Assembly (NCBI RefSeq): GCF_002105155.1
Contig: NW_019028997.1
Location: forward strand, 620,001-684,000
From: Lobosporangium transversale
Taxonomy: Eukaryota
Length of the DNA stretch: 64,000 nucleotides
Reading direction: 5' to 3'
Of the stretch, positions 299-63,865 are shown in pieces. Position 1 is the first letter of the stretch. Each line of letters opens with the position of its first letter. The position numbers and the translations under genes are program-made. A model generated the notes under the pieces. It was given only the letters and a program-made list of their open reading frames with translations, did not search any database and had not been told where the DNA came from.

Positions 299-1495
299 AC
301 GACACTACATCTGTACTAACAGTTCTGAATGGCTGGCAACAACATCATTGGAAAAGTTTATGTCAGAACCGCCTCTGCCTCTGTAAGCAACGGTAACTCG
401 TCATACAATGTCAATCCGAGAGACATTCGACACATGTTTCCAGATGCAATGCGCTTCAAGCTGGATGGACGTCCCATCTCATTTCTCAAAGACTCTGATG
501 CCTCTGAAAAAAAAAAAAGAAAAGAAAAAAAAAAAAGAGTCTGCGCATGGCATTCTATCCTAACGAGATCCTGGACGTCATTACAGGAGTACGCAGCTCA
601 GCAACAGCAATGTTGCCATCAGTATGTCTTGCTTGAGGGAGTCAGTAAACCCGGCCTCGCAGGATCTTCCTTTAGTATCATCAAATACGACTACTCCATC
701 TTTCAATTCTTCCCTCACTACCCCCAATAATGGACAAACCGAGATGATCAACACTAGTCTTGGAAAGGGTATAGAGCTATTGCTAGAGGTCAAAGACTAG
801 AGCGACGAAAGCCTCAAATTATAATTAGATGCCGAGGTGAAAGACTACCAAATGCTTAAACTGCAATCGGAGGTACTTAGGCTACAGCAGGAGAGTAGGA
901 CGAAGAATAATGAAATACTTAAACTGCAACGTCAAGCCCTCGACAGACTTGACATCCTTCAGAAACATGTTAACGTTATTCGCATCCAGAACTTTGAGCA
1001 AAACGAGTATTCAATCCCTTGACTCTTAAAAATCTTGCCTGTTGATACAGCCAAGTAGAATTAGAACAAGAGGCGTTTGGAAATGCGGTGAAATTGAATG
1101 GCAACACATATGACTTTGTAAATTAACCATCACATTGGAATCCAGAATTACAGCCCAACAACTCTTTGATACGTTGACCAACGCGAGACGTCTTTACGGG
1201 TTGGACAGCACATTCAATTGGAATTAGGCCAAAGCTGATTTTGAAGCGTTTGAGAAAGTACTAAGGAAGTCAAATGCATCAATCCTTTGACTTGAACTTG
1301 GGGGCTTCCAAGGAAGTACTGGAGCTTCATTATATTGAAGCTACTGGAATTTGAATACTTGTAAATTCACTCAAGGCCCAACCTAGCCTTGACCTGCTTG
1401 GATTTGAACGACAAAATAATTGGAGATGAAGAAACTCTTATACTGTCAGAGGCACTCAAGACTAACAGCACTCTGGCCCTTGTAAAACAGTCTAA
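299..1495 (+). pseudogene. Decayed copy of the header/core/RNI-LRR family
   Basis: Family motifs remain readable (VYVRTASASVSNGNSSY..DIRHMFPDAMRFKLDG, QALDRLDILQKHVN..IQNFEQNEYSIP, one LRR IIGDEETLILSEALKTNST). Start codon is ACG at 299; stops at 317, 326 and 1020; frameshifts and large internal deletions. Confidence 0.85.
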
Positions 1496-1615
1496 TGAAA
1501 GTAAGTGTATATGAACTAATTTTGAGGCTTTCCCAGATACAATTGACTGGTTTGAAGTTGGAAATAGTATTTGTATAGCGAATAAATATAGTTTAGTTTC
1601 AATAAATAATGATCC

Positions 1616-1652
1616 GCAGCCAAGCGCTCATTGCGAGGTTGCATTTTGATCC
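1616..1652 (+). other. Degenerate 25S/28S rRNA domain V fragment in LRR-gene 3' flank
   Basis: gcagccaagcgctcattgcgaggttgcattttgatcc matches recalled eukaryotic LSU GCAGCCAAGCGTTCATAGCGACGTTGCTTTTTGATCC at 33/37 positions (hand alignment). Confidence 0.75.
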
Positions 1653-2020: not shown

Positions 2021-2764
2021 TGTTTGCCTTCATAGAGGCGAGAAGTCCGAGTCGGCCAACACAAAAGGATCCCCAAGCCATGCAGAGGGGTTTGGTCCTG
2101 CCGTTCAGAGTAAGAATAGCGATGGAATCGTCGTTACAACAGCATGGCCAGGTTAAATGATCATCTTCACCTTTCTCCCTTTGAGCAATCTCTCTCATCG
2201 ACTGAGTAAGAAGGGTGCTTACTAATACTGGAGAAGGATTTCGCTATTGAATGCCGCAGTCAACCGAAAGATCTACAGAATGGCTAGAAAACATTGAGCT
2301 TGAAGGCGCGCGTGGTAGTGGGAGAGCCGCGATTCGAAAGAACATTCCACTCACTCCACCAACTGTCCTTCTGTACACCTCACACCTGCCTAGTATATAT
2401 CACCCGCGACATGGATACAGCTCATAACAAACAGTAAAGGATGCGTCTTGAAGCCAATAATCAGTGTTTTGACCCAGCTGCATCCCTTCGCAAATGTGAT
2501 GGCAAGTAAGTTGGGAGACGTGGTAATACCGGCAGACAGTAACATGCTTGCATCCAAAGTATAAAAGCACGTCAATTATCTGATAGCCTTTCTTCAGTTG
2601 CATATTTTTTATGGTGTTTGCAAATTACTTGAGATACTTGATTGAGCATGGCAGGCCATAGAATTGTTGCATAGTAATTATAAATGACGAGCTACCAACA
2701 ACACCAAAGAAAGCGGAAGGAGGTAGAGCATCATATTGCTACTCTTTGCGTTGGACCAATCAAT

Positions 2765-2952
2765 GCTATCTGCCAACTATCCTCATCCAAGACTTTGAAC
2801 TACACGAGTATCTAATCCCTCGACTCTTCATTGCTCAAGACTAGACCACTTTGGCCACTTTGGACTTGTCCTTCAATTCAATCGGGGATGAAGGAACTCA
2901 TGCGCTGTCAAAGGCACTCAAGGATAACACTGCTTTGACTGTATTGGCCTAA
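2765..2952 (+). pseudogene. Internally deleted remnant of the LRR family
   Basis: ILIQDFELHEYLIPRLFI is joined almost directly to one terminal LRR, LDLSFNSIGDEGTHALSKALKDNTALTVLA*, which resembles the end of the 34398 gene (GDEGAHALSKALKNSTTLTVAV*). Confidence 0.8.
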
Positions 2953-4447: not shown

Positions 4448-6248
4448 TTTCGTCAAAGTGGTTGAAGGATAAAGAAAAGAAGAAAAAGAGAAAGAGTGGA
4501 CAGATGACACCTTTATAAATGTTCGTTTTTGAAAGCCAAGAGGCAAGTGACATCATCCAACGTTGTTCATCGCTCTATCGATTCAATATTCGATTTAATG
4601 CTGAGATTGTATAGTGAAAGAGACGAAGCAAGGGAGAAGAAGGGTCAAGCAAAAAGAGCCGAGAGAGATTCATGTGATGTGCGCGCGTCCATTGCCCTTA
4701 CATCTCTCACATCTATTGGTCCGTCCTGTTGGTGGCAAAAATTTAGAAATTGAGACAGCGAATAGCAGCAGATGCATGGAGTCTATGCCGCTCATTATCC
4801 GCTTCTGATGTCATCTATACTCCTCTCATACCTCTTGGTACCAGAGCAAGCAAAGACCTCCCATACTCCAAGGGAAGAAACTTATTTAGACAATGAGCAA
4901 CGAGCAACATGTAGTGTGATGTGGTTAAACTAAACAGGACAAAGGTCCATAACATAAGCATAGTGACGGTTGTATTTACACACCCATGCTCACAGGCAGC
5001 CAGCCCTTGATCAAGAATAGAGGCAGAGTATCTTGACAACACCAGCCAAGTTTGTCTTCCTTTCCTTTGAAGAGGCTGACTGCGCAAATCGAAAGCATTA
5101 TAAAGGATTAAATGAAATAAGAATACATTATGAAGAGTACTATTCAAGATAATTCAGTGGAATATGAAAAGATAGTAAGCACAATGCATTTAAATAAATG
5201 TATGCTTACTATCGTCATTTGCAGCTCCACAAGCGATAAGTGTCATCAACAAGTCATAATGTTCTCTTAATGTCCGCCTCCCTTCTCTTCGCATATGGAA
5301 GCATAAGCATGAACAAATAGATATTCAGCTATTGACTCTGGCCTTGTTATATTTTTTAAACAAAGAAGTGAGATAAAATTAAATCATTAAACAAAATAAT
5401 AAAAAAAAAAAAAACAAATAGTAAATAGAAATAAAATAAGAATTAAATTAAGGAAATAAAAAATAAGAAATAAAAAATAAAATAAAAAATAAAATAAAAA
5501 ATAAGAAATAAAAAATAAAAATAAAAATAAAAATAAATATAAAAACAAAATATTGAAAATAAAAATAAATAAAAATAAGAAATAAAAAATAATTTTACTT
5601 CATTTTCTTGAATCTCGCTCTCTTACATACTATCCTCACTATCCGTATATGCTCCTCTAATCATCTACAACATATCTTCCATATGTCTTCACAAATGAGT
5701 TAGCCTCCCTTTTGTCGCGTTTCCAAGCATTCTCCAAATATTATTCCCGATTGAATAGACCTAAGTCTGAAGAATTACTTGTCCAAGTCGCTCTTTATGT
5801 GCGACGCATCCAAATGAGTTTCGAATACTCCCCTCTCTCTGAAAGGATATTTTATGATAAGCTATATAGCTCCATTAATAAGTCTCTCCTGCTCGACTCG
5901 ATTGAACAACAAAGAAAAACTAAAAGCCATTGAGTACGAAGTGGGCCGTTGTTTGTCTGGACAAGACTTGCTCTTCATACACTAACACGCATAACTGAGT
6001 GAGTGTTTTAGTTATTTTTTACTGTTACTTTAATATCTCCACAAGGACTTGCTTCATCACCATGGATTTGGCGCCATGGTATCTTTTTGGTCTTGAAGAG
6101 TTGATAGCTTTGGAGGATATGGCCTATCACTATTATTGTGATATTGGTAAGGATAGTATACCTAGTCATTTACTCAGTTCTGGAAGTGCAAATCAGACAA
6201 GTCAAACCTCTGCTTTTTATAAGTCCTGGTCCGCTTGTATAAAAGTCC

Positions 6249-6668
6249 ACTTTGGACATGAGGAACAGCTCGATTGGGAATGGAGGAGCCCTTGCACTGT
6301 CAGAGGCACTCAAGGTTAACACTACTTTGACCGCTCTAGGCCTGGGAAACAATTCAATTGGGAAAGAAGGAGTTCTTGCACTGTCAGAGACGCTCGCGAC
6401 TAACACTACTTTGACTACCTTGAAACTGGGATACAACTCAATTGGGAATGAAGGAGCTCTTGCACTGTCAGAGGCTCTCAAGATTAACACAACCTTAACT
6501 GGTTTGGACTTGTCCGACAACTCAATTGGGAATGAAGGAGCCCTTGCATTGTCAATGGCACTCAAGACTAATATAGCTTTGACTGCCTTGGATTTGTGGA
6601 GGAACCCAATTGGAAAGGAAGGAGCTCTTGCACTACTAGAGGCGACCATCACAATAGTATTTGAATAG
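6249..6668 (+). pseudogene. Orphan 5'-truncated LRR cassette (about 5 RNI-like repeats plus family C-terminus)
   Basis: LDMRNSSIGNGGALALSEALKVNTT... fused to repeat A at about 6248; no header or core domain upstream. Confidence 0.85.
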
Positions 6669-7365: not shown

Positions 7366-9897
7366 TCACGTAAAACGGATCCGCGCCGCAATAGTCTTGA
7401 GCACCTCAGACAGTGCAAGGGCTTCTTCCTTTCCAATTGAGTTGTCCCTCAAGTCCAATTTAGTCAATGTGGCGTTAGTCTTGAGCGCTTCTGACAGCGC
7501 AAGAACTCCTTCCTTCCCAATTGAGTTGTAATGCAAGTTCAAAGTAGTCAAAGTTGTATTGACCTTGAGTGCCTCTGACAGTGCAAGGGCCCCATCATCC
7601 CCAATTGAGTTGTGCCTCAAGTCCAAAGTAGTCAAGGATGCGTTAGCCTTGAGTGCCTCTGATAATGCAAATGTTCCTTTATTCCCAATTGAGTTGTACC
7701 TCAAGTCCAGAGTTGTCAAGGTAGCGTTAGCTTTGAGTGCCTCTGACAGCGCAAGAGCTCCTTCCTTCCCAATGGCGTTGCTGAACAAGTCCAAAGTAGT
7801 CAAGGATGTGTTGGCCTTGAGTGCCTCTGACAGCGCAAGAGCCCCTTCCTTCCCAATTAAGTTGTGCCTCAAGCGCAAAATACTCAAGGTTGTGTTAGTC
7901 TTAAGTGCATCTGACAGTGCAAGAGCTCCTTTCTTCCCAATTGAGCTGTAACGCAAGTTCAAAGTAGTCAAGGTTGTGTTGATCTTGAGCGCCTCTGACA
8001 GTGCAAGAGCTCCTTCATCCCCAATTGATTTACTACTGAAGTCCAAACAAGTCAAAGTTGTATTCGTCTTCGACAGTAACAGAGCCCCTTCCTTTCCAAG
8101 CGAGCCGTACTCCATGTCCAAAGTAATCAAAGTTGTATTAGTCTTGAGTGCTTCTAACAGTGCAAGAGCTCCTTCCTTCCCAATTCGGTTGCACATCAAA
8201 TCCAGCGTGGTCAAAGTCTTGTTAGTCTTGAGTGCTTCTGATAGTTCCAGAACTTATTCATCCCCAATTGAAAGGCCCTTCAAGTTCAACGTAGTAATAG
8301 CGTTATCGTCCCTGAGTGTATTTGCGAGTGATCGAAAGTCACTAGCATCAATCTCTCGAGGCTTCATCTCAATAGTTAGCTTTTGAAGGTGTGGTGGCCT
8401 GCTGAGTCGTAAACTGGGGGCCTTTATAGTGTTCGGAGGTAAAACAATATGGATCGCCTTCATGCTGCTAAGTTCTATGATGTGAACAAGCATTCCATAT
8501 CTGGGAGCCATTGAAAGTATTTCTTTGGTGGTGCTTTCTTGAAACTCTCCGAGTTCAAGCCGAAGGATCGATACACTTGACTTCTTTAGTGCTTCTTCAA
8601 ATGCTTCAAGATCACTTTTACTCCAATTCCAGTCAAAACTGATATCCAACTCGTAAACACGTCTCGCATCGGTCAGCACATTGAAGAATTCTTCAGCTGT
8701 TGTTTTGGTCTTCAATATGATGGTCACTTTGCCTAGGTGCAAGTCATATTCGCCGCCATTCAGCTCCACTACCTTTTCGAACGCTTTTTGTTCTGCTTCT
8801 CTATATGTTGAGCGATAGTGATCAAAACAGACCCATTTGACATGGCCTGTCTCTGTCGTGATGCTGTACAAGTTGCCAAGTTGTTTGTCTTCATCATTGT
8901 TTTGAAGGAATTTCCCCAGTTGCCGAAGATCGGCTTCTTCAAGTGCCTCACACTCACCGATTTTGTTGATCTTGCTCAAGACTGGGTACTCATTAGGGAG
9001 TGCTTCCATATATTTGATCGAATAGTCGATACCGGCATCGAGATTAGGAGTTGGTACCAGGGAAGCTGTCAAAGGCATCCCCATTTTGAGAGAATGTAAA
9101 AGGATAAGCATGTACTTTCCATACTTGCGAAAGAACTCTGTGCTGTTTCGGATGTCATATCCTTCATGTTTGGCAATATGGATCTGGTTCTGATTGCTTT
9201 TGCTTATCGTTGCAGTGTGCTCTCCACATTCACAAAGGAAATGAAGGCGGAACTTGCTCCTCAGGATATTCCTTGGGTCCCACTTGGTGGTGTCAACAGG
9301 CAGGACTATAAAGAGTCGAGGGATTGGGTACTCATGTAACTCAAAGTTCTGGATAAGGATAGCAAGTCTGTCAAGAACTTGCTGCTGCAGTTTAAGCATT
9401 TCGTCGTCCTTCTTTTTGGCTTCCAGTAACAAGTCAAGCATCTTTTTGGCGTTTTCTTTAGTCTCTAGGATCAAATCCGTAGTCGTTTTAAGGCTGGAGC
9501 TGCTACTATTACTGCTGCTATTATTATTGCAGACCTGTGGTCCATCTGTAATGACATCCAGGATCTTGTCAGGATAGAATGCAATGCATGGGGGTTCGAT
9601 TCTAATAGGACAAAAGTAAAAACAAAACTTAGGATATGCAATTGAGTTCTCTTACTTTTTGTTCCTGAGCAACACATACGATAAATAAATACTTTACCTG
9701 TTGCCATTAGAGTCTTGAAGGAACAGGATGGGATGTTCATCCAGCTTGAATCGCTGTGCATCTGGAAACACATCCTGAATGTCTTGTAAACACACATAGT
9801 ATGATGAGTTGCCATTGCTTGCAGAGATGGAGGCAGTCCTGACACCGACTTCTTCAATGATGCCAGCTTTTCGGAATTGTTGGTACTGTTGAGTCAT
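7366..9897 (-). pseudogene. LRR-family gene with 11 LRRs, interrupted by an in-frame TAA in LRR1
   Basis: Exon 1 9897-9698, intron 9697-9602 (GT..AG), exon 2 from 9601. The TAA at 8256-8254 is in frame with the downstream LRR ORF 8214-7366. It also lacks about 7 aa (LQRHANA) present in paralogs. Confidence 0.85.
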
Positions 9898-11860
9898 GAG
9901 ATAATTCGAGGATAATGATGAAAAGTAGGAATGAAAAGATTCGTTCCATCTATTTTTTATACAATGTTTTTTTTTTTTTATTTTTTTATTTTTGGCTTCG
10001 ACTCTCCATCTCATCCATTTCTTTATTTTATGGAGTGATTCTGGTGTATCATTCATATTTCTTTCCACTCGAGGACTAATATGGCTCCTCATGCCATATT
10101 ATTCTTCAGAACAGCTTCTCCATTGATCCACTGAGCGTACAGTTACTCTCTAACCACTTGGGAAATCGGTCCTCTCATCCACCTTTGACATCGTACACGG
10201 AATGTTGTCGTCTATGACCACCGAGCACTGGAGAGTTTCCCAATCCCTTGCATCTGTTGCAATGTGTACTTTTTCCTATCCCGCATCGGATGGCCACTTT
10301 CGCTTCCTATCAGTCAATGTTGCTCCAAGCTGATTATACTCTGCGTCAATCCTTAAATAAAGTCCTCCTTTCTGGACAGTAACTCCAAGAATATAGCCAT
10401 CCAAACTAGAACGTCGAAAATGCAGGAAATAGTCATCCCTGACCAGATGCTCGACACCCGTTTAGATGCTCTAAACTAGAACTGCGAGTGGCGCATCTAG
10501 TTTAGCTTATGAATTCTGCCTTGCATGCATTTTATTCGTGTGGTGATTAAACGCGTAATTTGGTTCTATAAGGCACGTGACACCCATTTTCTTTTTTTTT
10601 CTCTCTCGTTCTTGGCATGACGCGTAAACATTCCTCTTCACTCACTTCATTCACTCTGCTCAGCAATTGCTTCTGTCTTCAATTCAAACCTGCTTCCCAT
10701 AACATGAGGTTGCTTTACAAGGTTATCAAGACTAGCAAGCGCAATGAAACGAAGTATAGCCACAAGGTAAGGGATTGGTTGTGACTAAGAACAAGCATAG
10801 CGTGTGTACGGATTTCAGAGAAAGGATGCGAGCAGGGTCCTCCGTGGGTACATGAGAAGAGTACAGTCTATGCTAAGGCGCTGGATTGCTTCTCGCTATG
10901 ACCTCGCCTCAGAGCCCGGGACTGAGGTGGTGCTGGATTTGAGCTTGTTGTTCTTGTTTGCTCCGTTGGGTGTCTTCACCTCTCCATGTTGAGCATGGAT
11001 GGTGCAGCAGCTTGAACGACATGTTCTCCGTCAGACTCGTGGGTCCATGAGGGGGTTGTTGTACCACGCAGTTGATAATGTGGTGCAAATAAGTCCCTCC
11101 TCCATATGGCCTCATCCGACTTCTTTGGAGTCCACTTCCCGTTGGACCTATCTGGGAGTCATATTGTAAGCAATTCTGCTCATCATGTTGGTTGCTCTTT
11201 GGGTACATGAGAGACACATAGTCGATGCTAAAAGGTGTGGACTGTCTCTTGCTATGACCTCCCCATGAGTCTTTTTGGCTCTTGGCAGTGCTGCAATCGA
11301 TGCCTGTTGTCTCTTTGAGGCTGATGGCTATGACGAACGTTAGGAATCATCCAATTGCGGTTGTTTTCATCGTTGGATGTCTGGGACCCCTGCCCCTGAG
11401 GAAATGAGCAGATTAATAGCACAAAGGAAGTTGTGCGGTTGTGTTTTGTCTCTTCAGCTCACTAACCAATCCCCAATTATTTTAGTTCTTCTCATTAGAT
11501 ATTGCCTATAACTGAGCAAGATCCCCATTGAGCAGGCAGCTACCGCTGCTCACCAGCCAGGTGCTAAAGCAGGCACAAGTGAGTAAGCAGAGATATTCGC
11601 ACCTTATCGCTCTGTTAGATAGAGGGACAGCAACTGAGATACACAAGGATGATCCAAATGATGACAAGAATGACAATGGAGGTATCTCAGGTTAGTGCAA
11701 TACCATTAAAAGCTCTCTTAATGTGTTCAATGAGCGAAGGAGATACGGACCCCAAGGATGCGTCTTTTGCAGTAGATGCATGTTGTGATAGTGGAAATGC
11801 CAGCAGCTCTAAAGATGGCAGGGTAGATGACTTGTAGCAAATAAATAAATATGTCAATAA
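9300..11860. repeat. Inverted segmental duplication B, left arm (partner about 39205-41760)
   Basis: ORFs 10804-10992, 10909-11217 and 11649-11837 are identical to 40073-40261, 39848-40156 and 39228-39416 (sums 51065). Includes the upstream region, exon 1 and intron of an LRR gene. Confidence 0.95.
10551..10625. promoter_or_regulatory. Promoter-like motif cluster (two ACGCGT, TATAA, CACGTG); duplicated at about 40440-40515
   Basis: ACGCGT at 10551 and 10620, TATAA at 10567, CACGTG at 10574, followed by a pyrimidine-rich leader and ATG at 10704. Confidence 0.35.
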
Positions 11861-14800
11861 ATAAAGAATACAAAGTTAAAAAAAGGACGAAAATGGGTTG
11901 TCCCGAGATGTTAAAGACAAATCATACATGTTCAATTCTTTGTCCATGGCCATTGTTCTAGACGATCCTTTTGGGAAGGCCCTAAGACCTTGAACTTCGT
12001 CAGATTACGTGTCTGTGTCGACGACAATATCCGACCATGGATGAGTATATACCCCTTGGCACTGGGTTCTCCGGCCAGGCATGGTAAGGCCAAAAAAAAA
12101 AAAAAAAAAAAAAAAGAATTCAACGGACCGGACGCAAACAATCCCTCCAGGCGCTCTGGATCGATTACGAACTTGGCCCTTCAAATGAAAGGCTTTTTTT
12201 TTTTTGCCTCTCCCAACGCAAGAAGTGGTCAAGAAGCCGCATTTGCACAGGTTCCATCTTCAACAACAATTGAAAAAGATGCTACTCATACTCGAAAACA
12301 TAGCGAGTACTGTCACTCCAGCTTGCTACGCTTTTGAAGCTGGATAGACCCGACTATCTTGTGAAGGTGTGAAGAATAACCCTCGTTTGTCTTTTTTCTT
12401 ATCCATTTAAGTCGAGTAGAGAGCCTTGCCGACGGAATTACATAGTTTACTACAACGCTCCCATCAATGAGAGAGCTTTCAACAGCCACTTGGGTCACCG
12501 CACATGAAGAGCGAAAGCCGTGAGTAATTCTCCATATTGGACCCGCACGCGGTTAAGAATTTTGTGAAAGGCTAAGTTTGGTAATGAAATACACCTAACA
12601 GAAAGGTCTATGGGAAATATAGTCCAGCCAATGTGAAGAGCCTAAATAAAGATTAAGATAAGTATGTAAGATGTCGCCTGTCCTATAAATAAAGACCCTC
12701 TTTTTGTCATATTGAGCTTTAGTTCGCATTACATGAGTAAGTTTATATACATGTAAAATCGGTCAAAACATTGCAGTGTCTACGGAGATGGCTCCAAAGT
12801 AATGAAAGAGACTAATAAGCTGATGGGTGATCTTGACTCATTTTTTGCGTGTCAATGTAAAAAGAAGTAGGGGGCTGAAGAATAAGCGCGAAAAAGAGCG
12901 CAAAGAAAGATGATAAAAAAAAAAATAAAGATGAAAGGCAAATGTGGAGAGAAAAAAGAGGGACGCGTCTATGTACGTCCCCATAACATCCAATCAAATT
13001 GTTGCAGAAAGCTGACGTGTATTTTACATTGACAAACTAGAGGAAAAAATTTTATTGAGGACGTTGGAAACTGAACCTGAGTAGCTGAGGCAAGCATGAT
13101 CTTTGCCATAGGACAAGCGATGCCACACTAATCGGAAGAGGCACATGTTAAAGGCAACAAGCCCTTGGTGTCCTTAAAAATAGATCAAGTCCAACTTTTT
13201 TTCTTTGGTCGATCCAGTCAGCGTTTGATGATGGTGCTGGGAAAGAGAAGGTTGGCGGGCACAGCGCCATGTAGTGTACTTGGCATTACCTGGGGATATG
13301 GTGCAGTTGAGGATGCAGGCCGACCAAAGCCAGCGGATGAGTCGATAGAGAGCATAGGAGAAGGTGCGCTGCAGATAGCATCACCAGAGGTTTCGTTCTT
13401 GTATGGAGAGGTTAGCCTCCCTAGGACTTTAACCTCTCTTGTCCGTCGTTTGAGTAAAATTAAGAGCGAACAAGCTGAAAGTAAAGGCTCCATAAGGAGC
13501 CAGAGGGAATTGGAAAAAGACACTGATTTATACGGACAAGTCTATAGCCTGACGGTCTGAACCTTATTGTGTCGTGGCTACAGGGGTGCTCGCATGATAG
13601 CAACTGTATGATTCAAATAAGCCGTCTGCAATGGATTTATCTCTTCCAATATTTGAAATTAACATTAGCAGGCACCGCACAAGACCTTTTCGCCCTGCAT
13701 GGCGACCCTGCGTAGCATGATTCAGGAGCCAAAGCCCTATTCGTATTCAACTAAAGTCGGAAAAGGCAATTGTCGTCACATTCTAGCACGGACGCTGGCT
13801 TGAAGGCGCTCAACTATAATCCGACAGATGATATCCTTCTCTTTGAGTGTGTATATTTCCGCGATCATTCGCTGAACAATACATAATGATCTGATTCAAG
13901 TGTTTGCCTATCAAAGGATGTAGAGCCTTGTTGTTGTAAATAGATATTCGTTTAACCTTTAATGCAGTAAACTGCCCACGACTAAATTATCTATCAATCG
14001 TATCTGTTATATTAACATAACAGCACTTATACTGACCCTTGTTTGTAAAAAACAATATCACTTTGCTTCCTGCTATCGATGTTTATCGGCCCTACAGGCC
14101 GATAACCGAGAATGCGATCACAAAAAGTCATTGCCTGACTTTCTTTGCACGCAATCATCTCTGCCTCCATACCCTGATGGGAATGCCTGACAATCCTACA
14201 GTGTAGTATAACGTGGTAAACGAAAGAGCATTGCCCTGCCGGTGTTGCAGCCTTATTACCATGGTGTGGGGCTCAATGAATTGAGATAAGAATCACCGAA
14301 GATGATTCGATTTAGTTCTTAACTGCAGAGTCACTTTGAGCTAAATACTTCTTTGCCCATCAGAGCAATAGAGTAGCTAGCTGAAGAGTGCCCCTGAACT
14401 GCCTACGCAGACATGACTGAGCAGTACCTCCGAACGGAAACCGCTCCCCAAGATTAGGAGTGTGACGAATGGAGGCATGGAAGGACAAAGGCAAGCGGCG
14501 GGAGCATTGCTCAAAGGACTTGGACGTTGTGGGTACAAAGCTGTCGGGGGGACGGCGGGCACCCGCCACAGCCAATGTAGAGAACAACGCTGGGACAGCC
14601 GAGGAGCCTTGTGAGACTGACAAGTGCTGAAGATGTCTCAGACCGTGAAAAGGCAATGGCAACAGGCTGTACTTTTTGTTGATGGAAATGTTAGATCTCA
14701 CAAGTGGGTTTCTGGGGATGATTGTGTCGGAACACTTCCTGAGAGGAGAGCTGTATATATACACGTTCTTTATAATATACAGTCGTATTAATAGTAATGA

Positions 14801-15529
14801 TTAAAAAAACGCCGCCGTCGTCTGCTCTTGTACTAACCGCATGTTGGGGTAATAGAGAAGAATGCAGTGAAAGGTAGGAAAAAGGAGGATCTTATTGGTT
14901 TGGCAAGTCATAGTCTCTTGATAAGGGATTGGAACAAGGTCCATCTTGGAGTCGATTATGATTATTTACCTTGCATGGCAGCCTAATCAAGAGCGGGTAA
15001 GGAAAGAAAATGGCATTGGGTATAGGGCGGAAAGTACAACTCCATCAACAAGTGCGAACAGCTTGCTTTGCTCGAACAAGAGAAGAAAGAAGATGAAAAG
15101 GGTGAATAGGAATGAGCATTTGAAGAAGAAAAGGCAGGAAAACTGGGATTTCAACCGAAATCGGCTGTAGGACATATTTGAACATCGGCTGCTATTTTTC
15201 ATTATAGGTTTATATGTCCTCCACTTAAGCAGCCGGATCCCGCAACTCCTCTACCGCCAGTTTATCGATCACAATCTCCAAAGAAGATATATGAAGCCTA
15301 TGTGTACTATGAAGCTGCACCCATCAACTGCCCCAGATGTTTAGCAGAGCTGTAATTAGAAGTGGAGCCTTTGAGCATGACGCTGTACAAGTCAGTAGAT
15401 TGAGCGAAAGAAACGGTTGATCTTTATTAAACATCGCCAGAGTTGTGATTTCCGAAGAAAAATCACCTAAAATAAAGACTGGTCAAAATAAAAATAATCC
15501 TCATTTTGGCCAGTCTTTATTTCTGGTGT

Positions 15530-17030
15530 ACCATGCATGGTCGAAGGGAGCTGCAGCAAAAAGTACCCACGCTCATCCTTGGAAAATACCGCAAGAAGTG
15601 AGGATGGCTACCCGTACTATCGTCGGCGTAACTATCCTGCACGCCCCTTTGTAAACTCAAAAGGCAACACTGTCGACAGCACTTGGATTGTTCCCCATAA
15701 TTTATGGCTTACAACTAAATATTAACGATGAAGTCTGTGGATCAGTTTCATCAGTCAAGTATATTTACAAATATGTGCACAAGGGTCATGACAGAGCAAC
15801 AGTTGCTATCGTAGCAGCGGATGGAGGAAATGTTAATCTCGATGAGCTCAGCAATTACAGGGGTAGCCGATATGGATCTACTTGCGAGAGCCTATGGCGC
15901 ATGTATGGCTTTGCACTCCATGGGCAATCCCATAATGCTGTTCGACTGCCTGTCCATCTGAAGGATCAGCAGCAGGTGGTCTTCGATCCTGACGCTAATC
16001 TCGAGGATGCCATCTCCTTTGCCCAAGACTCCCAGCCCATGGCATGGTTCAAGCTCAATAGTGCCATTGAGAAAGACATTTTAAGGGCAGAAGTCGCAAA
16101 TGTGACCAATGCAGAGACCGCAGGCAATGTAAAGGCACTAGAATATTATTTGTATCCTGATATACCTTACCTCTACACCTGGGATAAGCGCAGTAAGATG
16201 GAAAGAAAGAGCCAGGGCCAGTAGCACGAAGGTTCTCTCTAGAATCTATTTTGTCCAGCCAAAAGAGCACGAACGGTATTGCCTTCGGCTGCTGCTTATG
16301 CATGTCATAGGAGCAAAGTGTTTTGCTGAGCTCCGCACAGTGCCTGAAGTCAACCGAACCTTTGATACGTCCTACTCAGCTGCTTTTGCTCACGGCTTGC
16401 TCGAGGATGATGAAGAATGCAGTCGTTGCTTAGAAGAAGTATCCACATATCAGCCACCGAGGAGACTGCGTCACCTATTTACTATTATGATGATCAGCTG
16501 CAGTCTCTCTGGCCCACTGGCTTTGTGGAATCTCTATGCAAGGGATCTATCGGAGGACTCCCTTCATACATGTAGAGGGCCCTGGGGGAGGCAACTGCTA
16601 CCATGGAAGATAGTACAGAGGAACAAGCTAAGGGCTCGCCACTTTACGATCTAAATGAAGTGCTGAAGGAACTTGTGTCCTGCCTGGCCAACTTTCCAGA
16701 GATGCCTCAAGGAATTGAAAATGGCCTACAGAAGGAAGATCAGGTTGATGACACGCAGAAGCAATGGGAATTTGAACAAAAGGCGCTCAATGACTTGGTG
16801 TACTTGAACTTGAACTAGGAAATCACCTTCGAACACATCATTAAGGCAACCTAGGATGAGATTCATGAGAGGCTTTTTTCATTGATGGGACAGGCAAAAC
16901 TGTTTCTATACAAGACACTCATTGGTTGCCTCACTGGCCGATATAAGCCAAGCGTGATTGCTGTCATATCATCGGGGATTGCCTCCCTCATCCTTCATAA
17001 CGGCCATACAGCCCACTCCACGTTCAAGAT
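15530..17030 (+). mobile_element. Helitron relic (Rep-Hel linker region and start of PIF1-like helicase), frameshifted and truncated
   Basis: CMVEGSCSKKYP, DGYPYYRRR, WIVPHNLWLTTKY, EVCGSVSSVKYIYKYVHKGHDRA, ESLWRMYGF..RLPVHL, LRLLLMHV..FAELRTV, GLLEDD, LRHLF, SSGIASLILHNGHTAHSTFKI are characteristic Helitron RepHel motifs spread over several frames. Confidence 0.92.
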
Positions 17031-17083
17031 ACAGATATTTATTTTATTAAGATATAAACAATTAAAGGGAAAGAAGGCTTTGT

Positions 17084-18188
17084 TTACATCTTAGAGTTCT
17101 CAAGTCCAACAGCTTCGCACGACCAATTCCACCAAAACTTTTGTTTGGCAGGATCCTTGCTTTCTTCACTTGATTCATCCTCCCCACCTTTGGAGAAGTA
17201 CGCACCATTCTTGCTTCGTTTCTCACCACTCATGGCCTCAAAGACGCATGCACCTCCTTCCTGAACTGTGGAGGCAGCACTGATTCTTGAAAGCACATTA
17301 TCCATCAACATACGCGTTGCCAGTCCAGAGTCACGCTTCAAGTCGGTTGTGGGGATGAAACCTGGGCATACCTAAAAGAATAAAGAAAATAACGAGTAAA
17401 GAATAGGCAAGGGTTCACGTCACCAAAAGATCAAGATTAATTTTTTGTTATCAGATTCATTACCATGACATGGTTAAAAAGGCAATCCGTTTTTTTTTTT
17501 ATATTTTTTTTTTGGAATTCCTTACCGCGTTCACATTAACATCGGGGTCATCTTTAAGGGAAGCAGCCAAAGCATGCATACAAAGTGCCTGACAAAGCTT
17601 ACTGTTGCGGTAGATGAGCATGCCATCAAACTCAACAGAGCCATCAATGTTCTCGATAGTGAGCTCAGGTCCCTTTCCACGACCTACACCGGGTTTGTGC
17701 AGGGTCGAAGAGACAAAGAGGATACAGGATGGTTCCTCTGGCCAGGTCTTGTGGCCGATACGCAATGAGGGCAACAGCAATTGAGTCAAAAGGAATTGAG
17801 AAAGATGATTGACTTGAACGTTGGTTTCAAAGTTATCTCCAGTCATCTTACGGCTAAAGACCATCAGACCAGCATTCAGAATTAAGGTATGAATTCCCTG
17901 TGGGAAGGACTTTGTGATATCCTCTGCGAATTGGCGGACAGAATGGAAGGAAGCTAGTTCCAAGGGACGATGTTCGACTATACTGGTAGAGTCAGCAGGG
18001 ATAAAAGGTACAAGGTTGTTGACACCCTTTTTTGCACGTTGAGGGTCACGACAACCGAGGATAAGATGAACGTTGGGGATAGAGGCAAGGATGAGCTTTG
18101 CACACTCGAATCCAATACCAACGTTACCCCCAGTCATGACAATGACCTTCTTGGGTGGGACTGAAGTCTCTGAAGCGTGAGTAGCCAT
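17084..18188 (-). CDS. Short-chain dehydrogenase/reductase (WWOX/retinol dehydrogenase-like), 2 exons, about 316 aa
   Basis: TGGNVGIG Rossmann motif, LILNAG, QVNHLSQF, catalytic YRNSK. Intron 17525-17372 restores NAVCPGFIPTT. Confidence 0.92.
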
Positions 18189-34334: not shown

Positions 34335-34397
34335 TTATTTGGACTGAATAATATTCAAACATCATTATGATGCTCAAGTCATCCAACCTGCTATCAT

Positions 34398-38499: not shown

Positions 38500-39200
38500 G
38501 ATCATACGGAGAGTATGGACAGTGTATAGGAGAGCGAGAAAATGAATTAAGTCCAAGGGTTCCAGGAAATGAAGTAAGGAATTTTTTTATTTTTATTTTA
38601 CATTTTTTATTTTTATTTTACATTTTTTATTTTTATTTTACATTTTTTATTTTTATTCCATATTTTATTTTTTATTCCATATTTTTTATTTCGTATTTTT
38701 ATTTGTTTTTTATTTATTTTATATTTATTTTGTTTAAAAAATATAGCAAGGCCAGAGTCAATAGCTGAATATCTACTTGTTCATGCTTATGCTTATGCTT
38801 CCATATGCGAAGAGAAGAAAGGCGGACATTAAGAGAACATTATGACTTGTTGATGACACTTATCGCTTGTGGAGCTGCAAATGACGAGAGTAAGCATACA
38901 TTTATTTAAATGCATTGTGCTTACTATCTTTTCATATTCCACTGAATTATCTTGAATAGTACTCTTCATAATGTACTCTTACTTCATTTAATCGCAGTCA
39001 GCCTCTTCAAAGGAAAGGAGGGAAAGACAAACTTGGCTGGTGTTGTCAAGATACTCTGCCTCTATTCTTGATCAAGGGCTGGCTGCCTGTGAGCATGGGT
39101 GTGCAAATGCGGTGCCACTGTGCTTATGTTATGGGCCTTTGTCCTATTTACTTTAGCCACATCACACTACATGTTACTTGTTGCTCATTGTCCAAATAAA
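38500..39200. repeat. Third copy of the dispersed repeat (same orientation as about 31730-32505, inverted to about 4880-5650)
   Basis: Long near-identical blocks such as caaggccagagtcaatagctgaatatcta and ggcggacattaagagaacattatgacttgttgatgacac. Confidence 0.92.
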
Positions 39201-39204
39201 TGTT

Positions 39205-41760: not shown

Positions 41761-43445
41761 TCATAATCCTGCCTGTCGACACCACCAAGTGGGACCCAAG
41801 GAATGTCCTGGGGAGCAAGGTCCGCCCTCATTTCCTTTGTGAATGTGGAGAACACACTGCAACGATAAGCAAGAGCAATCAAAACCAGATTCATATTGCT
41901 AAACATGAAGGATATGACATCCGAAACAGCACAGAGTTCTTTCGCAAGTATGGAAAATACATGCTCATCCTCTTACACTCTCTCAAAATGAAATCGCCCT
42001 TGACGGCTTCTTTGGCATCAATCCCGAAACTCGATGTCTGTATCAACTCTTCGATCAAATATATAGAAGCACTCTCTAATAAGTACTCAGTCTTGAGCAA
42101 GATTAACAAAATCGACGAGTGTGAGGCACTTGAAGGAGCTGATCTTTGGCAACTGGAAAAATCCCTTGAAAATAACGATGAAGGCAAGCAACTTGGTAAC
42201 TTGTACAGGATCACAACGAAGACAGGCCATGTCAAATGGGTCTGTCTGGATCACTATTGTTGGACATATATAGAAGCAGAACAGCAAGTGCTCGAAAAAG
42301 CAGTAGAGCTGAATGGTGGCGAATATGACTTGCACCTTGGCAAAGTGATCATCAGATTGAAGTCCAAAGCAACAGCTGAAGAGCTCTTTGATACGCTGGC
42401 CAACGCAAGGTGTGTTTACGAGTTGGATATCGCCTTTGATTGGAATTGAACCAAAGCTGATCTGGAAGCATTCGAAGAAGCACTAAAGACGTCAAGTGTA
42501 TCGATCCTTCGACTTGAACTCGGAGATTTTCAAGAAAGCATTAGCTGGAAAATACTTTCGACATCCTCGCCATATGAAACACTTGCTCGCATGATAGAAC
42601 TTAGCAGCATGAAGACAATTCAGATTGTTCTCCCTCCGAAGACTATAAAAGTCCCCAGTTTACGATTCAATAGGCCATCACACCTTCAAAATCTAACCAT
42701 TGAGATGCAACCTCGGATTGGCTTTAATGACTTTCGAGTACTCGCAAGTACACTCAAGGCCGATACGGCTATAAACACGTTGAACTTGAGGGGTAAATCA
42801 ATTGGAGATGAAGGACTTCTGGCACTGTCAGAGGCACCCAAGGCCAACACATGTTTGGCTACTTTGAACCTGCGGAACAATTGGGAATGAAGGAGTAATG
42901 GCACTATCAGAGGCACTCAAGACTAACGGGGCTTTGACCACGCTGAATTTGATGAGCAATTCAGTCGGGCATGAAGGAGCTCATGCACTGTTAGAGGCGC
43001 TCAAGGTTAACACTACCTTGACCATTTTGGATTTGGAGTACGATTCACTTGGAAAGGAAGGGGTTCTGTTGCTGTCTAAGACAAACACGACTTTAGCTGA
43101 TTTGGACTTTACCTCCAAGTCAATTGGGATGAAGGGGCTAATGCAATTGCAGAGGCGCTCAAGACTAATACAACCATGCTTGCTTTGGACTTGGGGCTCA
43201 ATTCAATTGAGAGTGAAGGAGCTCCTGCACTCTCAGAGGCACTCAAGGCTAACACTACCTTGATTTCTTTATGCTTGTGGAAGAACCCAATTGGGAAGGA
43301 AGGAGCTCTTGCATTGTCAAAGGCATTCAGAGGTAACACTTCCTTGGCTACTTTGGACTTGAGAGAGAACTCAATTGGTGGTGAAGGAGCTCTTGCGTTG
43401 TCAGAGGCACTCGAAGTTAATGCGGGTCTGGTCATTCATACGTGA
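41152..43445 (+). pseudogene. LRR-family pseudogene with 8 LRRs
   Basis: Exon 1 41152-41351, intron 41352-41446. TGA at 42447 where paralogs have TGG; frameshifts near 42880 and 43127. Confidence 0.88.
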
Positions 43446-44694: not shown

Positions 44695-44727
<33 letters not shown>

Positions 44728-56691: not shown

Positions 56692-58201
56692 CTATCGACG
56701 ACTGTTATGATGGTTACAATATCGCCTGTGTACTGATTGCTCAGTACTGGATTCTGTGTTATATCCCGGGAAAATGGTTGGCCAACAGACAGGATGGAGC
56801 TGCGGATAATGTTCTGCAACTGCATTCAGGATACCTTTGTACAGAACATCGTTCCCCATTCTTTTCAAATGAAGGCCATCCATAATATAATCCTCCAATT
56901 GGGTGGATTCATGCAACATACAAGTGCCCTCAACTTGACATTGAATATCGGACCAAAGATTGACTACAGGCACCTTCAACTCTTGTCCGACTTCAACACA
57001 AGCATCTGCATATTCCTTTGTGACGTTGTTTGATCGATCCAATCGTTTGTTGGCTGCAGTGACTGAGGCTTCCCACATGACATCATGAACAGGTGCTGGG
57101 GTGACCAAAACAACTTGAGTGTGAGGAGAATAATTTGGAGAATCTGGGAATCGGATGGAGGAGATGATGGACCGAAGATTTTCCTTGTAGGCGCCCAAGG
57201 CCACATGTTGACGCGTATGTGGGAATGATGCATCATCCGTTCCAAGGGCAACCACAACAAGTTTTACAGGCTCAACACCACCGGCAGCTGATTTGGACTC
57301 TTGATGTAGAAGATCTGGGAATATTGATTTGATCCAATGCGTATTGTATCCTAACCGCATACACACCATTCATACACACCATGCATACAAAAAAAATAAA
57401 AAATAAAAAAAAGGGAGACGCGTCAGCCTGATTTAATAAAAAGTCTCTAATCGTGTATGCAAAATATAATCTTTGGGTTACTATACCTGGGAAGCCCCGA
57501 AGGATTACATCAGCACGTCCAGCCCATTCATCAGCCAATGAGCCTATCCATCCATGAGTAGCATGAGTATATCCGTATTTTGAAATCGAGTCTGCAAGAA
57601 CAACAATCTTTCCAAAGAGTAAACAATCATCTTGATCTGCGATAGGTTCAAACCCTTTCTGTGTCTGACCCTGGTTTGATTGTGGTTGTTGTTGTTGTTG
57701 TTGCACGGATGAAAGTGGACAAAGTGGGATTACCATTGGTCGAAGCTCTCCTTGATCAGGAGGACCCATAAAAGTACTTTGGAACTCACGCGTCGGACCC
57801 ACTTGAGGAGAATCGAGTAAGCCAGCAATGATTTTGAAATAAAAAAAGGATGCGGTGACCACCAAGGAGACGAAGGCAACAGCAGAGTTGAAGGTGTAAG
57901 CGTTCACATACGTTGGTGTAAAAGGAGCGTCGCGAGGCAAGCGTCCAGTTCCTTCGTAAGCACGTCCATTGTAATAGACTTTGTTGTCAGTGACGGTGTC
58001 AACTCCAGAGGCCGTTGTCGTTGATGTCGTTGTCGATGTTACTGTTGTTGTTGCTGTTGTTCCACTAAGAGTCTTGCTTGTTTCAGCATTGGCATTTGTA
58101 TCGGAATTAGTTGAAGGAGTGTTGTCGTTGTTGTCTTGGTTAGGATTGTCTTGAGGGATGCGACGACGCAATCCAGAGTCAGCAGCCTGTTGAGACTGCA
58201 T
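56692..58201 (-). CDS. SGNH/GDSL hydrolase, IAH1-like, with an N-terminal extension and predicted TM helix
   Basis: LADSISKYG, RGFPGYNT (across intron 57486-57351), LGTDDA, DGLH. Hydrophobic AVAFVSLVVTASFFYFKIIAGLL. Confidence 0.88.
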
Positions 58202-58607
58202 TGCAAAAGTGAAGCAGGGTTTAAAATAAAAAGAGTGAAAGTAATGGAGTGGGGTCCAAAGGACGAAATGAAGCTTATGAAGGTAATGGAGGTAATGTCA
58301 TGGGTAATGAGTAAAAAAGAGCAATCAAACAAAGAGAGAGAAGGAGAGATGGAGAGAGAAGGAGGAGGCATAATAAATATGAAAGACTATTAAACTTGTT
58401 TAGTCTCCTTTTCTTTTCTTCACTTTACTCCTTTGTTCCTGTATAATAATTAATCAAAACAGTAACGGTTTCTCTCCTTCTCCTTCTCTCTCTCTCTCTC
58501 TCTCTTGCCCAGACTCTGACTTCTTTCATTCTTCTTCTTCTTCTTCTTCTTCCCCATCCCTTGTACATATACATATACATATCCATATCCATATACCTAT
58601 TCTAATC

Positions 58608-60280: not shown

Positions 60281-60911
60281 TCAAAAGATATACGCATACA
60301 ATAATATATATATAATAATATAATACAAATAAAAACCCCATATTTTTTTATTTTTTTTACATCTCAATACATGTTCATTGAACTAAAAGAGAAAGGAGCA
60401 TTAAAGTGGACTTGCTCTGACTGATTGACGTTTTATCTCTGTTTTAATCCTAATAAAATTAAACTTTTTTCAGATCAAGTTCCTTTCTATGGATTAGATA
60501 TGGATGCAATTTTTTACATGTAAGATCTTCCTACACACTGCAAATAATACACAGAAGGTTCTGGCCTACGATGTGGCGTTGTACCTGCAATGTATTTTAA
60601 TATACTTATTACACTAATGGACTTTAACAACTTTGTTTTCTCACTCTCTAACTGTCCTCTTCCATCTGTACTCTCTCCCATCATCCCTAGATATCTCCTC
60701 CACATGTCTTCACTCTAGAATAAAGCTCCTTTTGCTTACATACACTTACCAATTGCATGGGTCCGGACAACAATCATATTTTTCCCACTCTTGTGTCGTC
60801 ACCAAATGGCGAAGCTGAAAAAAAAAAAAAAAAAAAAAAAAGAAAGAAAGAAAGAAATAAGAACATCTTTCATCTTGTCCTCATCAATCGAATAATCGAG
60901 CACCCACCACA

Positions 60912-63865
60912 ATGACACACAATCAATACCAGCGATTCCGAAGGAGCGACAACGACAGCATTGAAGAAGTTTGTGTCAGGTCTGCTTCCATCTCTGCAGC
61001 CAATGGCAACCCGTCATACTATGTGAGTTTGAGAGACATTCAAGACGTGTTTCCAGATGCAATGAGATTCAAGTCGGATGGACATCCTATTCCGTTCCTT
61101 GAAGACCTTGATGGCAACAGGTATATTATTCTATCGTAGTGCCTAATGCGCGTTATCAAATACTCTGAATAAGAACATGGGAGGGCTCAATTAGGTATGG
61201 GTTCATTCTTTGGTCCAATTAGAATCGAGCCCTCACGCATTGCATTCTATCCTAACAAGATCCTGGATGTCATTACAGAAGGACCACAGGTCTGCAATAG
61301 TAATAGCAGCAGTAATAGTAGCACCAGCAGTACTAGCAGCGACAGCATGGCCGTCATCAATTTGCCTGCGTTGAAAATGCCAACCAACCTAACCTCTCAG
61401 GATATTTTACCATTATCAAACTTGGTTCATTCTTTCAACTCAATCCTTACTACTCGCGACAAAGCGCAAACTGAGATGGTCAACTCTAGCCTTAAAGCGA
61501 TTGCGGAGTCGATGCTAGAGGCCAAAGAAAAGAGCAACATGGTGATTGACCTGTTACTGGAAGCCAAAAAGAAGGACGATGAAATGCTTAAACTGAGTAA
61601 CGAAATACTTAAACTGCAAAGGGAGGCGAAGGAGAAGGACGAAGAAATGCTTAAACTGCAGCAGCAAGCTCTCGACAGACTTGCCATTCTTCAAAGACAT
61701 GCTAGTGCTATCCTTGTCCAGAACTTTGAGTTACATGAGTATCCAATCCCTCGACTCTTCATAGTCCTGCCTGTCGACACCACCAAGTGGGACCCACGGA
61801 ATCTCCTGAGGAGCAAGGTCCGCCTTCATTTCCTTTGTGAATGTGGAGAGCACACTGCAACGATAAGCAAAAGCAACCAGATCCATATTGCCAAACACGA
61901 AGGATATGACATCCTAAACAGCACAGAGTTCTTTCACAAGTATGGAAAGTACATGCTCATCCTTTTACACTCCCTCAAAATGAAATCGCCCTTGACGGCT
62001 TCTTTGGCATCAATTCCGAAACTCGATGCTGGTATCGATTACTCAATCAAATATATGAAAGCACTCTCTAATGAATACTCAGTCTTGAGCAAGATCAACG
62101 AAATCGATGACTTTGAGGTACTTGAAGGGGCTGATCTTCGGCAACTGAGGAAATTCCTTGAAAACAACGATGAAAGCAAACAACTTGGCAACTTGTACAG
62201 GATCACGACAGAGACAGGCCATGTCAAATGGGTCTGTCTGGATCACTATCGTTGGACATATAGAGAAGCAGAACAAAAAGCGTTCAAAAAGGTAGTGGAG
62301 CTAAATGGTGGCGAATATGACTTGCACCTTGGTAAAGTGACAATTACACTAGAGTCCAAAACAACAGCTGAAGAATTCTTCGATGCGCTGGCCAATGCAA
62401 GACGTGTTTATGAGTTGGATATCATCTTTGACTGGGATTGGACCAAAGCTGATCTGGAAGCATTCGAAGAAGCACTAAAGACGTCAAGTGTATCGATACT
62501 TCGACTTGAACTCGGAGATTTTCAAGAAAGCATTAGCTGGAAAATACTTTCGACATCCTCGCCATATGAAACACTTGCTCGCATGATAGAACTTAGCAGC
62601 ATGAAGACAATCCATATTGTTCTCCCTCCGAAGACTATAAAAGTCCCCAGTTTACGATTCAATAGGCCATCACACCTTCGAAATCTAACCATTGAGATGC
62701 AGCCTCGGATTGGCTTTAATGACTTTCGAGTACTCGCAAGTGCACTCAAGGCCGATACGGCTATAACCACGTTGAACTTGAGGGGTAAATCAATTGGAGA
62801 TGAAGGAGCTCTTGCACTATCAGAGGCACTCAAGACTAACAGGACATTGACTACTTTGGATTTGGGGTCCAACCGTATTCGAAAGGAGGGAGCCCTTGCA
62901 CTGTCAGAAGCACTCAAGGCCAACACAACCTTGACCACTCTGAACATGAGAAAGAACCCAATTGGGAATGAAGGAGCTCTTGCACTGTCAGAGGCACTCA
63001 AGACTAACACAACTTTGACTGCTTTGTACTTGAGAGACAACTCAATTGGGAATGAAGGAGCTCTTGCACTGTCAGAGTCACTCAAGGCTAACGCAACCTT
63101 GACTAACCTGGACTTGTACAGCAACTCAATTGAGAAGGAAGGAGCACTTGCACTGTCAGAGGCACTTAAGACCAATACATCCTTGACTGGTTTGGGCTTG
63201 AACAGCAACTCAATTGGGGATGAAGGAGCTCTCGCACTGTCAGAGGCACTTAAGACTAACACTACCTTGACTACACTGGATTTGATGGGCAACCGAATTG
63301 AGAGGAAAGGAGCTCTTGCACTGTCAGAGGCGCTCAAGACCAACACCACCTTGATCACTTTGGATTTGGAGTACGATTCACTTGGAAAGGAAGGGGCTCT
63401 GTTGCTGTCAAAGATAAATACGACTTTGGATACTTTGGACTTTGAATCCCAATCACTTGGAGTTGAAGGTGCTTATGCAATCGCAGAGGCGCTCAAGGCT
63501 AACACAACCTTGACTGCTTTGAGCTTGGAAGTCAACTCAATTGGGAGTGAAGGAGCTCTTGCACTGTCAGAGACACTCAAGGTTAACACTACCTTGATTG
63601 GTTTGGGCTTGGGCTACAACTCAATTGGGGATGAAGGAGCTCTTGCACTGTCAGAGGCACTCAAGACAAACACCGGTCTGACCGGTTTGAACTTGTACAA
63701 TAACTCAATTGGGAAAGAAGGAGCTCTGGCACTGTCAGAGGCACGCAAGGGGCTAACGCAACCTTGACTAACCTGGACTTGACGTACAACCCAATTGGGA
63801 ATGAAGGAACTCTTGCACTGTCAAAGGCACCCAAGGCTAACGCGACTCTAGTTGTTTATATGTGA
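60912..63865 (+). CDS. Near-intact LRR-family protein with 13 LRRs; +2 G frameshift before the last repeat
   Basis: Exon 1 60912-61120, intron 61121-61222, exon 2 open to 63767. aaggggctaac near 63750 (paralogs aaggctaac) shifts out the last LRR, which ends LVVYM* at 63865. Confidence 0.88.

Follow-up and report, generated by a model that had tools for sequence, protein, structure and literature searches.

The 64,000-nucleotide (nt) stretch of Lobosporangium transversale, a soil fungus of the Mortierellaceae, analysed here (RefSeq assembly GCF_002105155.1, contig NW_019028997.1, positions 620,001 to 684,000; further called the window) contains eight copies or relics of a family of leucine-rich repeat (LRR) proteins, five long copies and three relics, as found by six-frame reading, tblastn and self-comparison. 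Judged from sequence, the members consist of a header predicted to be ubiquitin-like, a coiled coil, a Cys/His core that corresponds to the bacterial Roco GTPase tail, and an LRR array at the C-terminus, and they possess neither Roc-COR nor NACHT or NB-ARC domains. An earlier note, made from the letters of the window alone, had proposed these genes as a non-self recognition family and had counted at least eight copies or relics with one intact, a census that we reproduced; it had missed the Roco-tail relation of the core, the predicted ubiquitin-like header and the Mortierellaceae-wide range of the family.

Gene copies, header and probable transcription

The long copies, named A (9897-7366, minus strand), B (30485-27751, minus), C (37932-34398, minus), D (41152-43445, plus) and E (60912-63865, plus), score 811-982 bits against each other in tblastn, so that their likeness is not due to chance; the relics start at 299, 2761 and 6243. 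A phase-2 GT-AG intron of 96, 86, 115, 95 and 102 nt in A to E, respectively, follows the GNR codons at the same codon in all five long copies, and all repeats of a copy, numbering 11, 10, 23, 8 and 13 in the same order, lie in one exon, confirming the repeat counts and the shared intron position given before.

Copy C (34398-37932, minus) is the only lesion-free copy, the other seven being broken or truncated. It encodes 1,139 amino acids (aa) by exon 1 (37932-37724) and exon 2 (37608-34398), separated by the intron at 37723-37609. Its header extends from 37932 to about 37557 and is followed by a short coiled coil from about 37493, the Roco-tail-like core at 36855-37358 (PRLF, CEC, a helical hairpin and WVC, in that order), an irregular LRR-like cap region, and an array of 23 LRRs at 36338-34398 which are 28 aa long, except for one of 25 aa. 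A 25-residue 'YDSL' repeat (e.g. 36086-36012) is present in every long copy, near the start of the array in four of them and as the ninth repeat in E, and therefore the arrays grew on both its sides.

Copy A (intron 9697-9602) is interrupted by an in-frame stop at 8256-8254, after its first LRR, copy B (intron 30285-30200) by frameshifts near 30015 and 29712, both before the core, and copy D (intron 41352-41446) by a stop at 42447-42449 and frameshifts near 42880 and 43125. Copy E (intron 61121-61222) remains open for 917 codons with 12 LRRs in frame, and a frameshift near 63750, which puts the 13th LRR out of frame, costs the last repeat only. The previous statement that a single copy is intact thus holds in the sense that C alone is free of lesions, and is too strict in that E may still be functional. 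The relic at 299-1500 (plus) is old, with a decayed header and coiled coil, a mostly deleted core, one LRR and many stops; in the one at 2761-2952 (plus) the start of a core is fused straight onto a last LRR; and the one at 6243-6668 (plus) consists of about five LRRs only, without header or core. These broken copies and relics, together with the range of 8 to 23 LRRs, bear out the birth-and-death turnover with variable repeat number that had been suggested.

Two inverted duplications account for part of this arrangement. The segment 2857-6249 duplicates 31137-34493, which comprises the end of copy C and the spacer towards copy B, with 92.8% identity overall and 99.0% over a 1,726-nt part, and the segment 8138-11861 duplicates 39203-42926, taking in copies A and D together with 2 kb upstream, with 98.9% identity over 9500-11861, a value that drops to about 80% in the core. 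Upstream of A and D, this duplication includes an identical 145-codon open frame (10909-11346 and 39719-40156) without a Pfam family. Moreover, a non-coding segment of about 630 nt (38583-39199 and 4882-5515, 86% identity) precedes copies B and C as well as the relic at 6243, and is possibly a shared regulatory element.

Annotated L. transversale proteins agree with the window letter for letter, those of P0016 and P0356 skipping lesions by means of extra predicted introns. Elsewhere on the same annotated contig, gene models repeat the broken junctions of A (P0002, one difference in 781 aa) and B (P0328), and the truncated end of E recurs in P0001, a record from another contig, and in P0355. 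Because these junctions and this end recur in other annotated records, the lesions in A, B and E are probably genuine.

The header was modelled for the relative P0010 (predicted local distance difference test, pLDDT, 87). The best structural match of this model is the TDP-43 N-terminal domain (Z 8.0, root-mean-square deviation 2.1, 70 residues), followed by the ubiquitin-like domain (ULD) of TBK1 (Z 6.4) and many ubiquitin-like domains at Z 5-6, so that nearly all of the top 50 are beta-grasp folds, and Foldseek returned no row at E 0.001. On this model the header is predicted to be ubiquitin-like. It is also swappable, as seen by sequence comparison: P0123 carries a Pfam Crinkler header (E 7e-21) on the same core and P0140 has the same precomputed family and the core, while the usual header occurs three times on P0327, a Sel1-repeat protein without the core. 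Pfam found no Crinkler (PF20147) match in the exon-1 frame of the window. A hydrophobic leader is missing from exon 1 of copy C (peak 19-residue hydropathy 0.22, against 1.19 in exon 2; hydropathy only, no dedicated predictor), and by this measure the copy shows no signal peptide and transmembrane helix of the kind found in surface LRR receptors.

As the earlier note had stated, none of the copies contains a Walker A motif: the six-frame scan of the window for [GA]xxxxGK[ST] gave two matches, neither inside a copy, and among 346 core-bearing relatives the string GxxxxGK[ST] occurs in three, as a string match only. Pfam identified no NACHT or NB-ARC family in the window copies, which are therefore not canonical NOD-like receptors (NLRs), and no known effector family (HET, HeLo or other) was matched in Pfam or NCBIfam, the core being without a clear structural match as well. 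The LRRs are of the ribonuclease inhibitor-like (RI-like) type, the nearest solved LRRs including a bacterial GALA protein (E 3e-31).

The contigs of one sequencing run (X5) show zero differences over seven parts of copy C, and one joint skips exactly its 115-nt intron with correct ends. The cover in X5 stops near both ends of the copy, where the DNA runs X1 and X4 continue. Another run (X7), for which there is no control, contributed a single short contig. From this one run, the family appears to be transcribed and spliced, with copy C as the probable source.

The core domain and the range of the family

Neither Pfam nor NCBIfam provides a name for the core. The starting point for a bacterial search was a C-terminal domain of cyanobacterial Roco GTPases which we presumed to be similar, and 122 loci (L001-L122) were fetched with a short motif, so that the sample is biased to one clade; the tail is carried by Cyanobacteria, Chloroflexota, Acidobacteriota and Planctomycetota. 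A hidden Markov model (HMM) built from fungal sequences only scored up to 35 bits against the bacterial Roco tails over nearly the whole domain (reversed sequences 3.2 at most), and a bacteria-only HMM reached at least 25 bits in 256 of 354 fungal proteins, with a best score of 74.6 (reversed sequences 11.6 at most). Alignment of the fungal with the bacterial tail profile by hhalign gave 97.8% and an E-value of 8.7e-13 over 205 columns. In the bacterial proteins the match is preceded by LRR, Roc, COR-A and COR-B according to Pfam, Roc and both COR parts being present in 7 of 10 proteins scanned. Selection by motif does not explain the match, because WV is all that the motif has in common with the fungal sequence, and in some proteins the N-terminal part scores on its own. 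These sequence comparisons show homology of the Cys/His core with the unnamed domain that follows COR-B in bacterial LRR-Roc-COR (Roco) GTPases.

The fungal and bacterial proteins thus have in common a homologous domain of about 170-190 aa located behind a coiled coil, the presence of LRRs, and an identical order of motifs (PRLF, L-x-C-E-[CH], G-x-Y, the hydrophobic hairpin, LRxL and WV[CH]). They differ in that the fungal family is devoid of Roc and COR and has gained a ubiquitin-like header, that its 28-residue RI-like LRRs follow the domain instead of being N-terminal, and that the group to which the window belongs lacks about 20 residues of the hairpin. An HMM made from 46 bacterial proteins detected no Roc-COR in the 354 fungal proteins or in 7,723 frames of the window and 69 fungal loci, and no COR dimerisation domain was matched in either the Pfam or the Roc-COR HMM searches. 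When prokaryote genomes were searched directly with the fungal alignment, no relatives were retrieved, and the same holds for plasmids. From the core tree, in which the bacterial branch is very long and the deep nodes are weakly supported, no direction of transfer is drawn.

The bacterial tail also occurs without the GTPase, judging from a 269-aa frame of Hormoscilla (L002:4971-5777, minus) which combines DUF6887 with the Roco-tail domain and is located directly behind a gene that bears both COR-B and this tail. Short frames with only the last 30-120 residues of the tail, some beside a full Roco gene, were seen in L012, L066, L071 and about 20 other bacterial loci, and may be frameshifted genes or partial duplicates. 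No conserved partner gene was recognized beside 80 bacterial loci; a P-loop protein recurs in six of them and another frame, which we take to be GxxExxY-like, in six.

In its structural model (pLDDT 79), the core consists of a small sheet bearing CEC and WVC into which a helical hairpin is inserted. This model matched no structure of the Protein Data Bank (PDB) at E 0.001 or better in Foldseek (the best VIA match, with Z 5.3, concerned a region other than the core) and no viral structure, and the bacterial tail profile reached a best E of 0.07 against PDB sequences; such blanks are no evidence of a new fold. Of 334 cores, 318 retain CEC, CEH being found in 3 of 31 L. transversale proteins and in all 53 bacterial tails, from which we infer that the core binds metal. 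Bacteria and most fungal members have a long, hydrophobic hairpin, the median peak hydropathy being 1.65 over 334 fungal cores and 1.52 over 53 bacterial tails. In the group of the window (41 of 203 measurable proteins), the hairpin is about 20 residues shorter. Among 157 proteins with tails of at least 300 aa, regular LRR arrays were present in 23 of 24 with a short hairpin versus 5 of 133 with a long one, an association that amounts to one or a few events and not 157, as the sample was gathered with the sequence of the window and relatives share traits.

A search with the core retrieved 710 proteins between 587 and 1,871 aa in length plus 68 that are shorter, and the named matches among the 120 and 68 listed, respectively, are all from Mortierellaceae. 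A profile search gave 1,931 clusters at 50% identity (E up to 0.001), 1,053 of them at 1e-30, the taxonomic range being taken from the best 150 of the 1,931. The family that had been ascribed to one early-diverging fungus is large, and, among the named matches listed, extends across the Mortierellaceae instead of being confined to a single fungus. One public L. transversale protein set contains at least 32 annotated members on at least 14 contigs. In the best 69 loci of 223 matching stretches of one metagenome, which possibly represents more than one species, 84 distinct cores were found, often in tandem, and among 92 core frames the intron acceptor stands at the same place in all 26 in which the pattern located it. 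Beside these 69 fungal loci no conserved partner gene recurs; at one of them a gene with ARM-like repeats and NACHT, having the look of an N-NACHT-type NLR, lies 2.5 kb after the family member (L187:9727-12021, plus). Five proteins (P0004, P0005, P0017, P0056 and P0061) have two annotated cores each, and several of them have a further header in the interior; they may be either tandem genes fused by annotation or true doublets.

Diversification of the repeats and exchange between copies

Repeat variation was studied in the 54 full-length in-frame repeats out of about 70, the terminal, 25-residue and frameshifted repeats being excluded. Columns 7 and 8 of the 28 (LxxLxL-XX-N) hold 14 and 13 residue types among these 54, with 3.2 bits each, and lie on the strand-to-loop edge, where ligands bind in LRR proteins. 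A codon model gave an omega of 8.75 at these two columns, and of 8.74 for copy C alone, with values up to 1.5 at the other columns, and in 42 neutral simulations, 28 of them with recombination, omega did not exceed 2.37 under the shared-rate test. With a free local rate, omega at columns 7-8 drops to 2.4-2.9 (p 0.02 and 0.002). By contrast, omega is 0.19-0.32 for the core in all 10 copy pairs, and 0.16-0.77 for exon 1 in the nine differing pairs.

Sliding identities reveal that the copies are mosaic: A and D agree by 97-100% in the header, B and C by 91-96% from the end of the core to LRR 3, and D and E by 97-98% after the core. Within copy C, repeats recur blockwise, e.g. as pairs of 95% and 90% identity six repeats apart. 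As far as these alignments go, the copies are a patchwork of one another, with sequence exchanged between paralogs. The variable binding face that had been postulated is in this way supported by diversifying selection at columns 7-8 together with exchange between copies.

Proposed function and rival explanations

We propose that the members of this family are cytosolic non-self sensors without a nucleotide switch, in which a conserved core is coupled to a diversifying LRR face, a reading to which we give an even chance. The LRR face would bind a changing foreign ligand, for instance from endobacteria, which this lineage hosts, from viruses or from competing fungi. Ligand binding would gather several molecules through the header and the coiled coil, standing in for the dimerising COR module (COR mediates dimers according to PMC6337361; sources given by PMC number are cited for excerpts). 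The clustered Roco-tail domains would then likely constitute the output, engaging a membrane via the hydrophobic hairpin, and the window copies, with their short and less hydrophobic hairpin, may be sensors of weak output that need a long-hairpin partner. New specificities would arise by repeat duplication, by point changes at the two positions and by exchange between paralogs, after which most copies would decay. A further-reaching version, which we hold to be doubtful, is an NTPase-free receptor class of Mortierellaceae in which a Roco output domain, cut from Roc-COR, is switched directly by the LRRs and a polymerising header, and a membrane-inserting hairpin kills or signals, with short-hairpin members, whose LRRs are regular and hypervariable, as sensors and long-hairpin members as executors. 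If so, the role of the tail in bacterial Roco proteins would be known as well.

Several observations weigh against the sensor proposal. As to selection, columns 7-8 were picked after inspection of the data, and a model with nothing but a raised rate at these codons is almost as good a fit as selection under a shared rate, so that diversifying selection at these columns is supported, modestly with a free local rate, and faster local mutation may contribute to it. The comparison between strains that the earlier note had called for does not help it: nine pairs from two public L. transversale protein sets are nearly identical, with 0-3 internal substitutions and one 28-aa repeat between them, so that polymorphism between strains is not apparent, although both sets may be of clonal origin. 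As to the output, the hairpins of the window have a low hydropathy (with a peak of 0.54 in the intact copy C and of 1.0-1.45 in the others), which speaks against a membrane output for these copies and makes it unlikely that they act alone as pores, and the support for a partner is thin, a long hairpin being present in one of 31 aligned L. transversale proteins (P0164, a partial one with an altered CEC motif). A Z of 8 for the header is borderline and a shared fold shows no function, and the Crinkler header on two relatives would point to export. Expression comes from one run, X5, whose RNA status was guessed, no run being recorded as RNA; its splice joint has a short side of 21 letters, the loose end there resembles a paralog, and the spliced contig may stem from one. 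Moreover, the same evolutionary signatures would fit secreted effectors and degradation adaptors, the immune role being one that we infer from them.

Of these alternatives, degradation adaptors or direct restriction factors seem to us unlikely, though the best placed. The LRRs would capture a foreign protein, the ubiquitin-like header would lead it to the proteasome or Cdc48 and the Cys/His core would be a metal scaffold, so that defence would proceed without signalling. This would agree with the resemblance of the header to the ubiquitin-like domains of Rad23 (Z 5.5), Dsk2 (Z 5.4) and parkin (Z 5.0), with the CEC/CEH exchange, typical of metal ligands, with the triple occurrence of the header on the core-less P0327, and with the RI-like repeats akin to those of the GALA protein. 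However, the top row for the header is the self-associating TDP-43 domain and not the proteasome shuttles, Pfam gave no F-box or ligase family, and both the sharing of the core with bacterial Roco proteins and the conserved hydrophobic hairpin are left unexplained.

Exported Crinkler-like effectors, which appear to us somewhat less likely again, would use the beta-grasp header for delivery into a competitor, prey or plant, the LRRs for binding variable targets and the core as the active part. Effector families likewise show birth-and-death evolution and diversifying selection, and the Crinkler headers of P0123 and P0140 on the same core indicate that headers are interchangeable. Crinkler headers are, moreover, ubiquitin-like and without a true signal peptide, but such headers need not all translocate (PMC5289972). 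The exon-1 frame of the window gave no Crinkler match, the header HMM misses P0123 and P0140, a Crinkler family was found in only 2 of 188 listed proteins, among those with Pfam labels, and behind the header there is neither a nuclease nor a kinase nor a toxin domain of any other known kind.

It is very improbable that the genes expanded selfishly or neutrally, spread by transposons or unstable repeats and without host function. Seven broken or truncated copies out of eight, recent duplications that take in flanking DNA and a PIF1 helicase relic at 16855-17091 (Pfam E 8e-11, probably of a Helitron) would suit such an expansion. Against it, purifying selection acts on the core in broken copies as well, the selection signal is concentrated in two positions of the repeat surface, all 26 frames of a distant relative set in which the intron acceptor could be located have retained it, and the helicase relic lies 5 kb outside the nearest duplicated block. 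The untranscribed transposon cargo that had been envisaged likewise found no support as far as examined, with a probable spliced transcript in X5 and 75 intergenic frames in which no transposase family was matched. Among inverted repeats, the 25 longest of each region proved to be gene copies, a result that concerns long repeats. The chances given to the sensor proposal and to these three alternatives leave a remainder unallocated.

Regarding known systems, the family is by their defining features neither an NLR, nor a Roco protein, nor a Crinkler, as far as sequence can tell, and its evolution resembles that of fungal NLRs with conserved repeats and of the brown-algal Roco candidates. In excerpts on the latter (Ectocarpus; PMC3341825, PMC11378527), clusters, pseudogenes, variable LRR number and positive selection on the concave face are reported as here, whereas the GTPase is kept and each repeat has its own exon, the fungal repeats all being in one. 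Brown-algal Roco proteins are also described with an unnamed post-COR domain, twice replaced by a membrane anchor (PMC3341825). Fungal NLRs with highly conserved repeats of the HET-E/NWD type share C-terminal repeats that closely resemble each other, intra- and intergenic repeat exchange, diversifying surface residues and birth-death evolution (PMC10197012, PMC13449251, in part), but the present family is without NACHT/NB-ARC and without HET, HeLo or another known effector family, and 8-23 RI-like LRRs take the place of their C-terminal superstructure-forming repeats; LRRs are missing from fungal NLRs according to an excerpt of PMC5658179. With Crinklers (CRN/CR, PF20147; PMC5289972, in part) the family shares a swappable N-terminal ubiquitin-like header, two relatives even having the true Crinkler header on the core, but its usual header is another sequence family and its body is Roco tail plus LRR, not NTPase, nuclease or kinase.

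In the literature searched, which covers subscription journals poorly, no description of this family was found, and the excerpt of PMC8778642 on family expansions in early fungi holds no LRR passage. NLR surveys cannot see the family because they require a nucleotide-binding domain (PMC12258605, in part), and fungi are without extracellular LRR pattern receptors in the available part of one survey (PMC2939053). The present family, with some 1,900 clusters and LRR arrays on which diversifying selection acts, is of interest in fungi reported to lack LRR receptors. If the sensor proposal is true, the receptor type would be undescribed for fungi in the literature searched, early-diverging fungi would gain a receptor class, and bacterial LRRK2-like proteins would gain an output by way of the Roco tail. 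The Roco-tail link also makes this unnamed domain, which has no Pfam family and no clear solved fold, testable from fungi and bacteria alike.

The copies in the window are surrounded by housekeeping genes, namely a Nup159/214-like gene, a short-chain dehydrogenase, Trm732/THADA, a steroid reductase-like gene and GDSL hydrolases. The PIF1 fragment is part of a decayed Helitron-like element at 15421-17094 (plus), in which the frames upstream of the fragment presumably represent a Helitron Rep/helicase. At 56692-58297 (minus), two GDSL/SGNH hydrolase-like frames adjoin each other, one of them with a long N-terminal extension.

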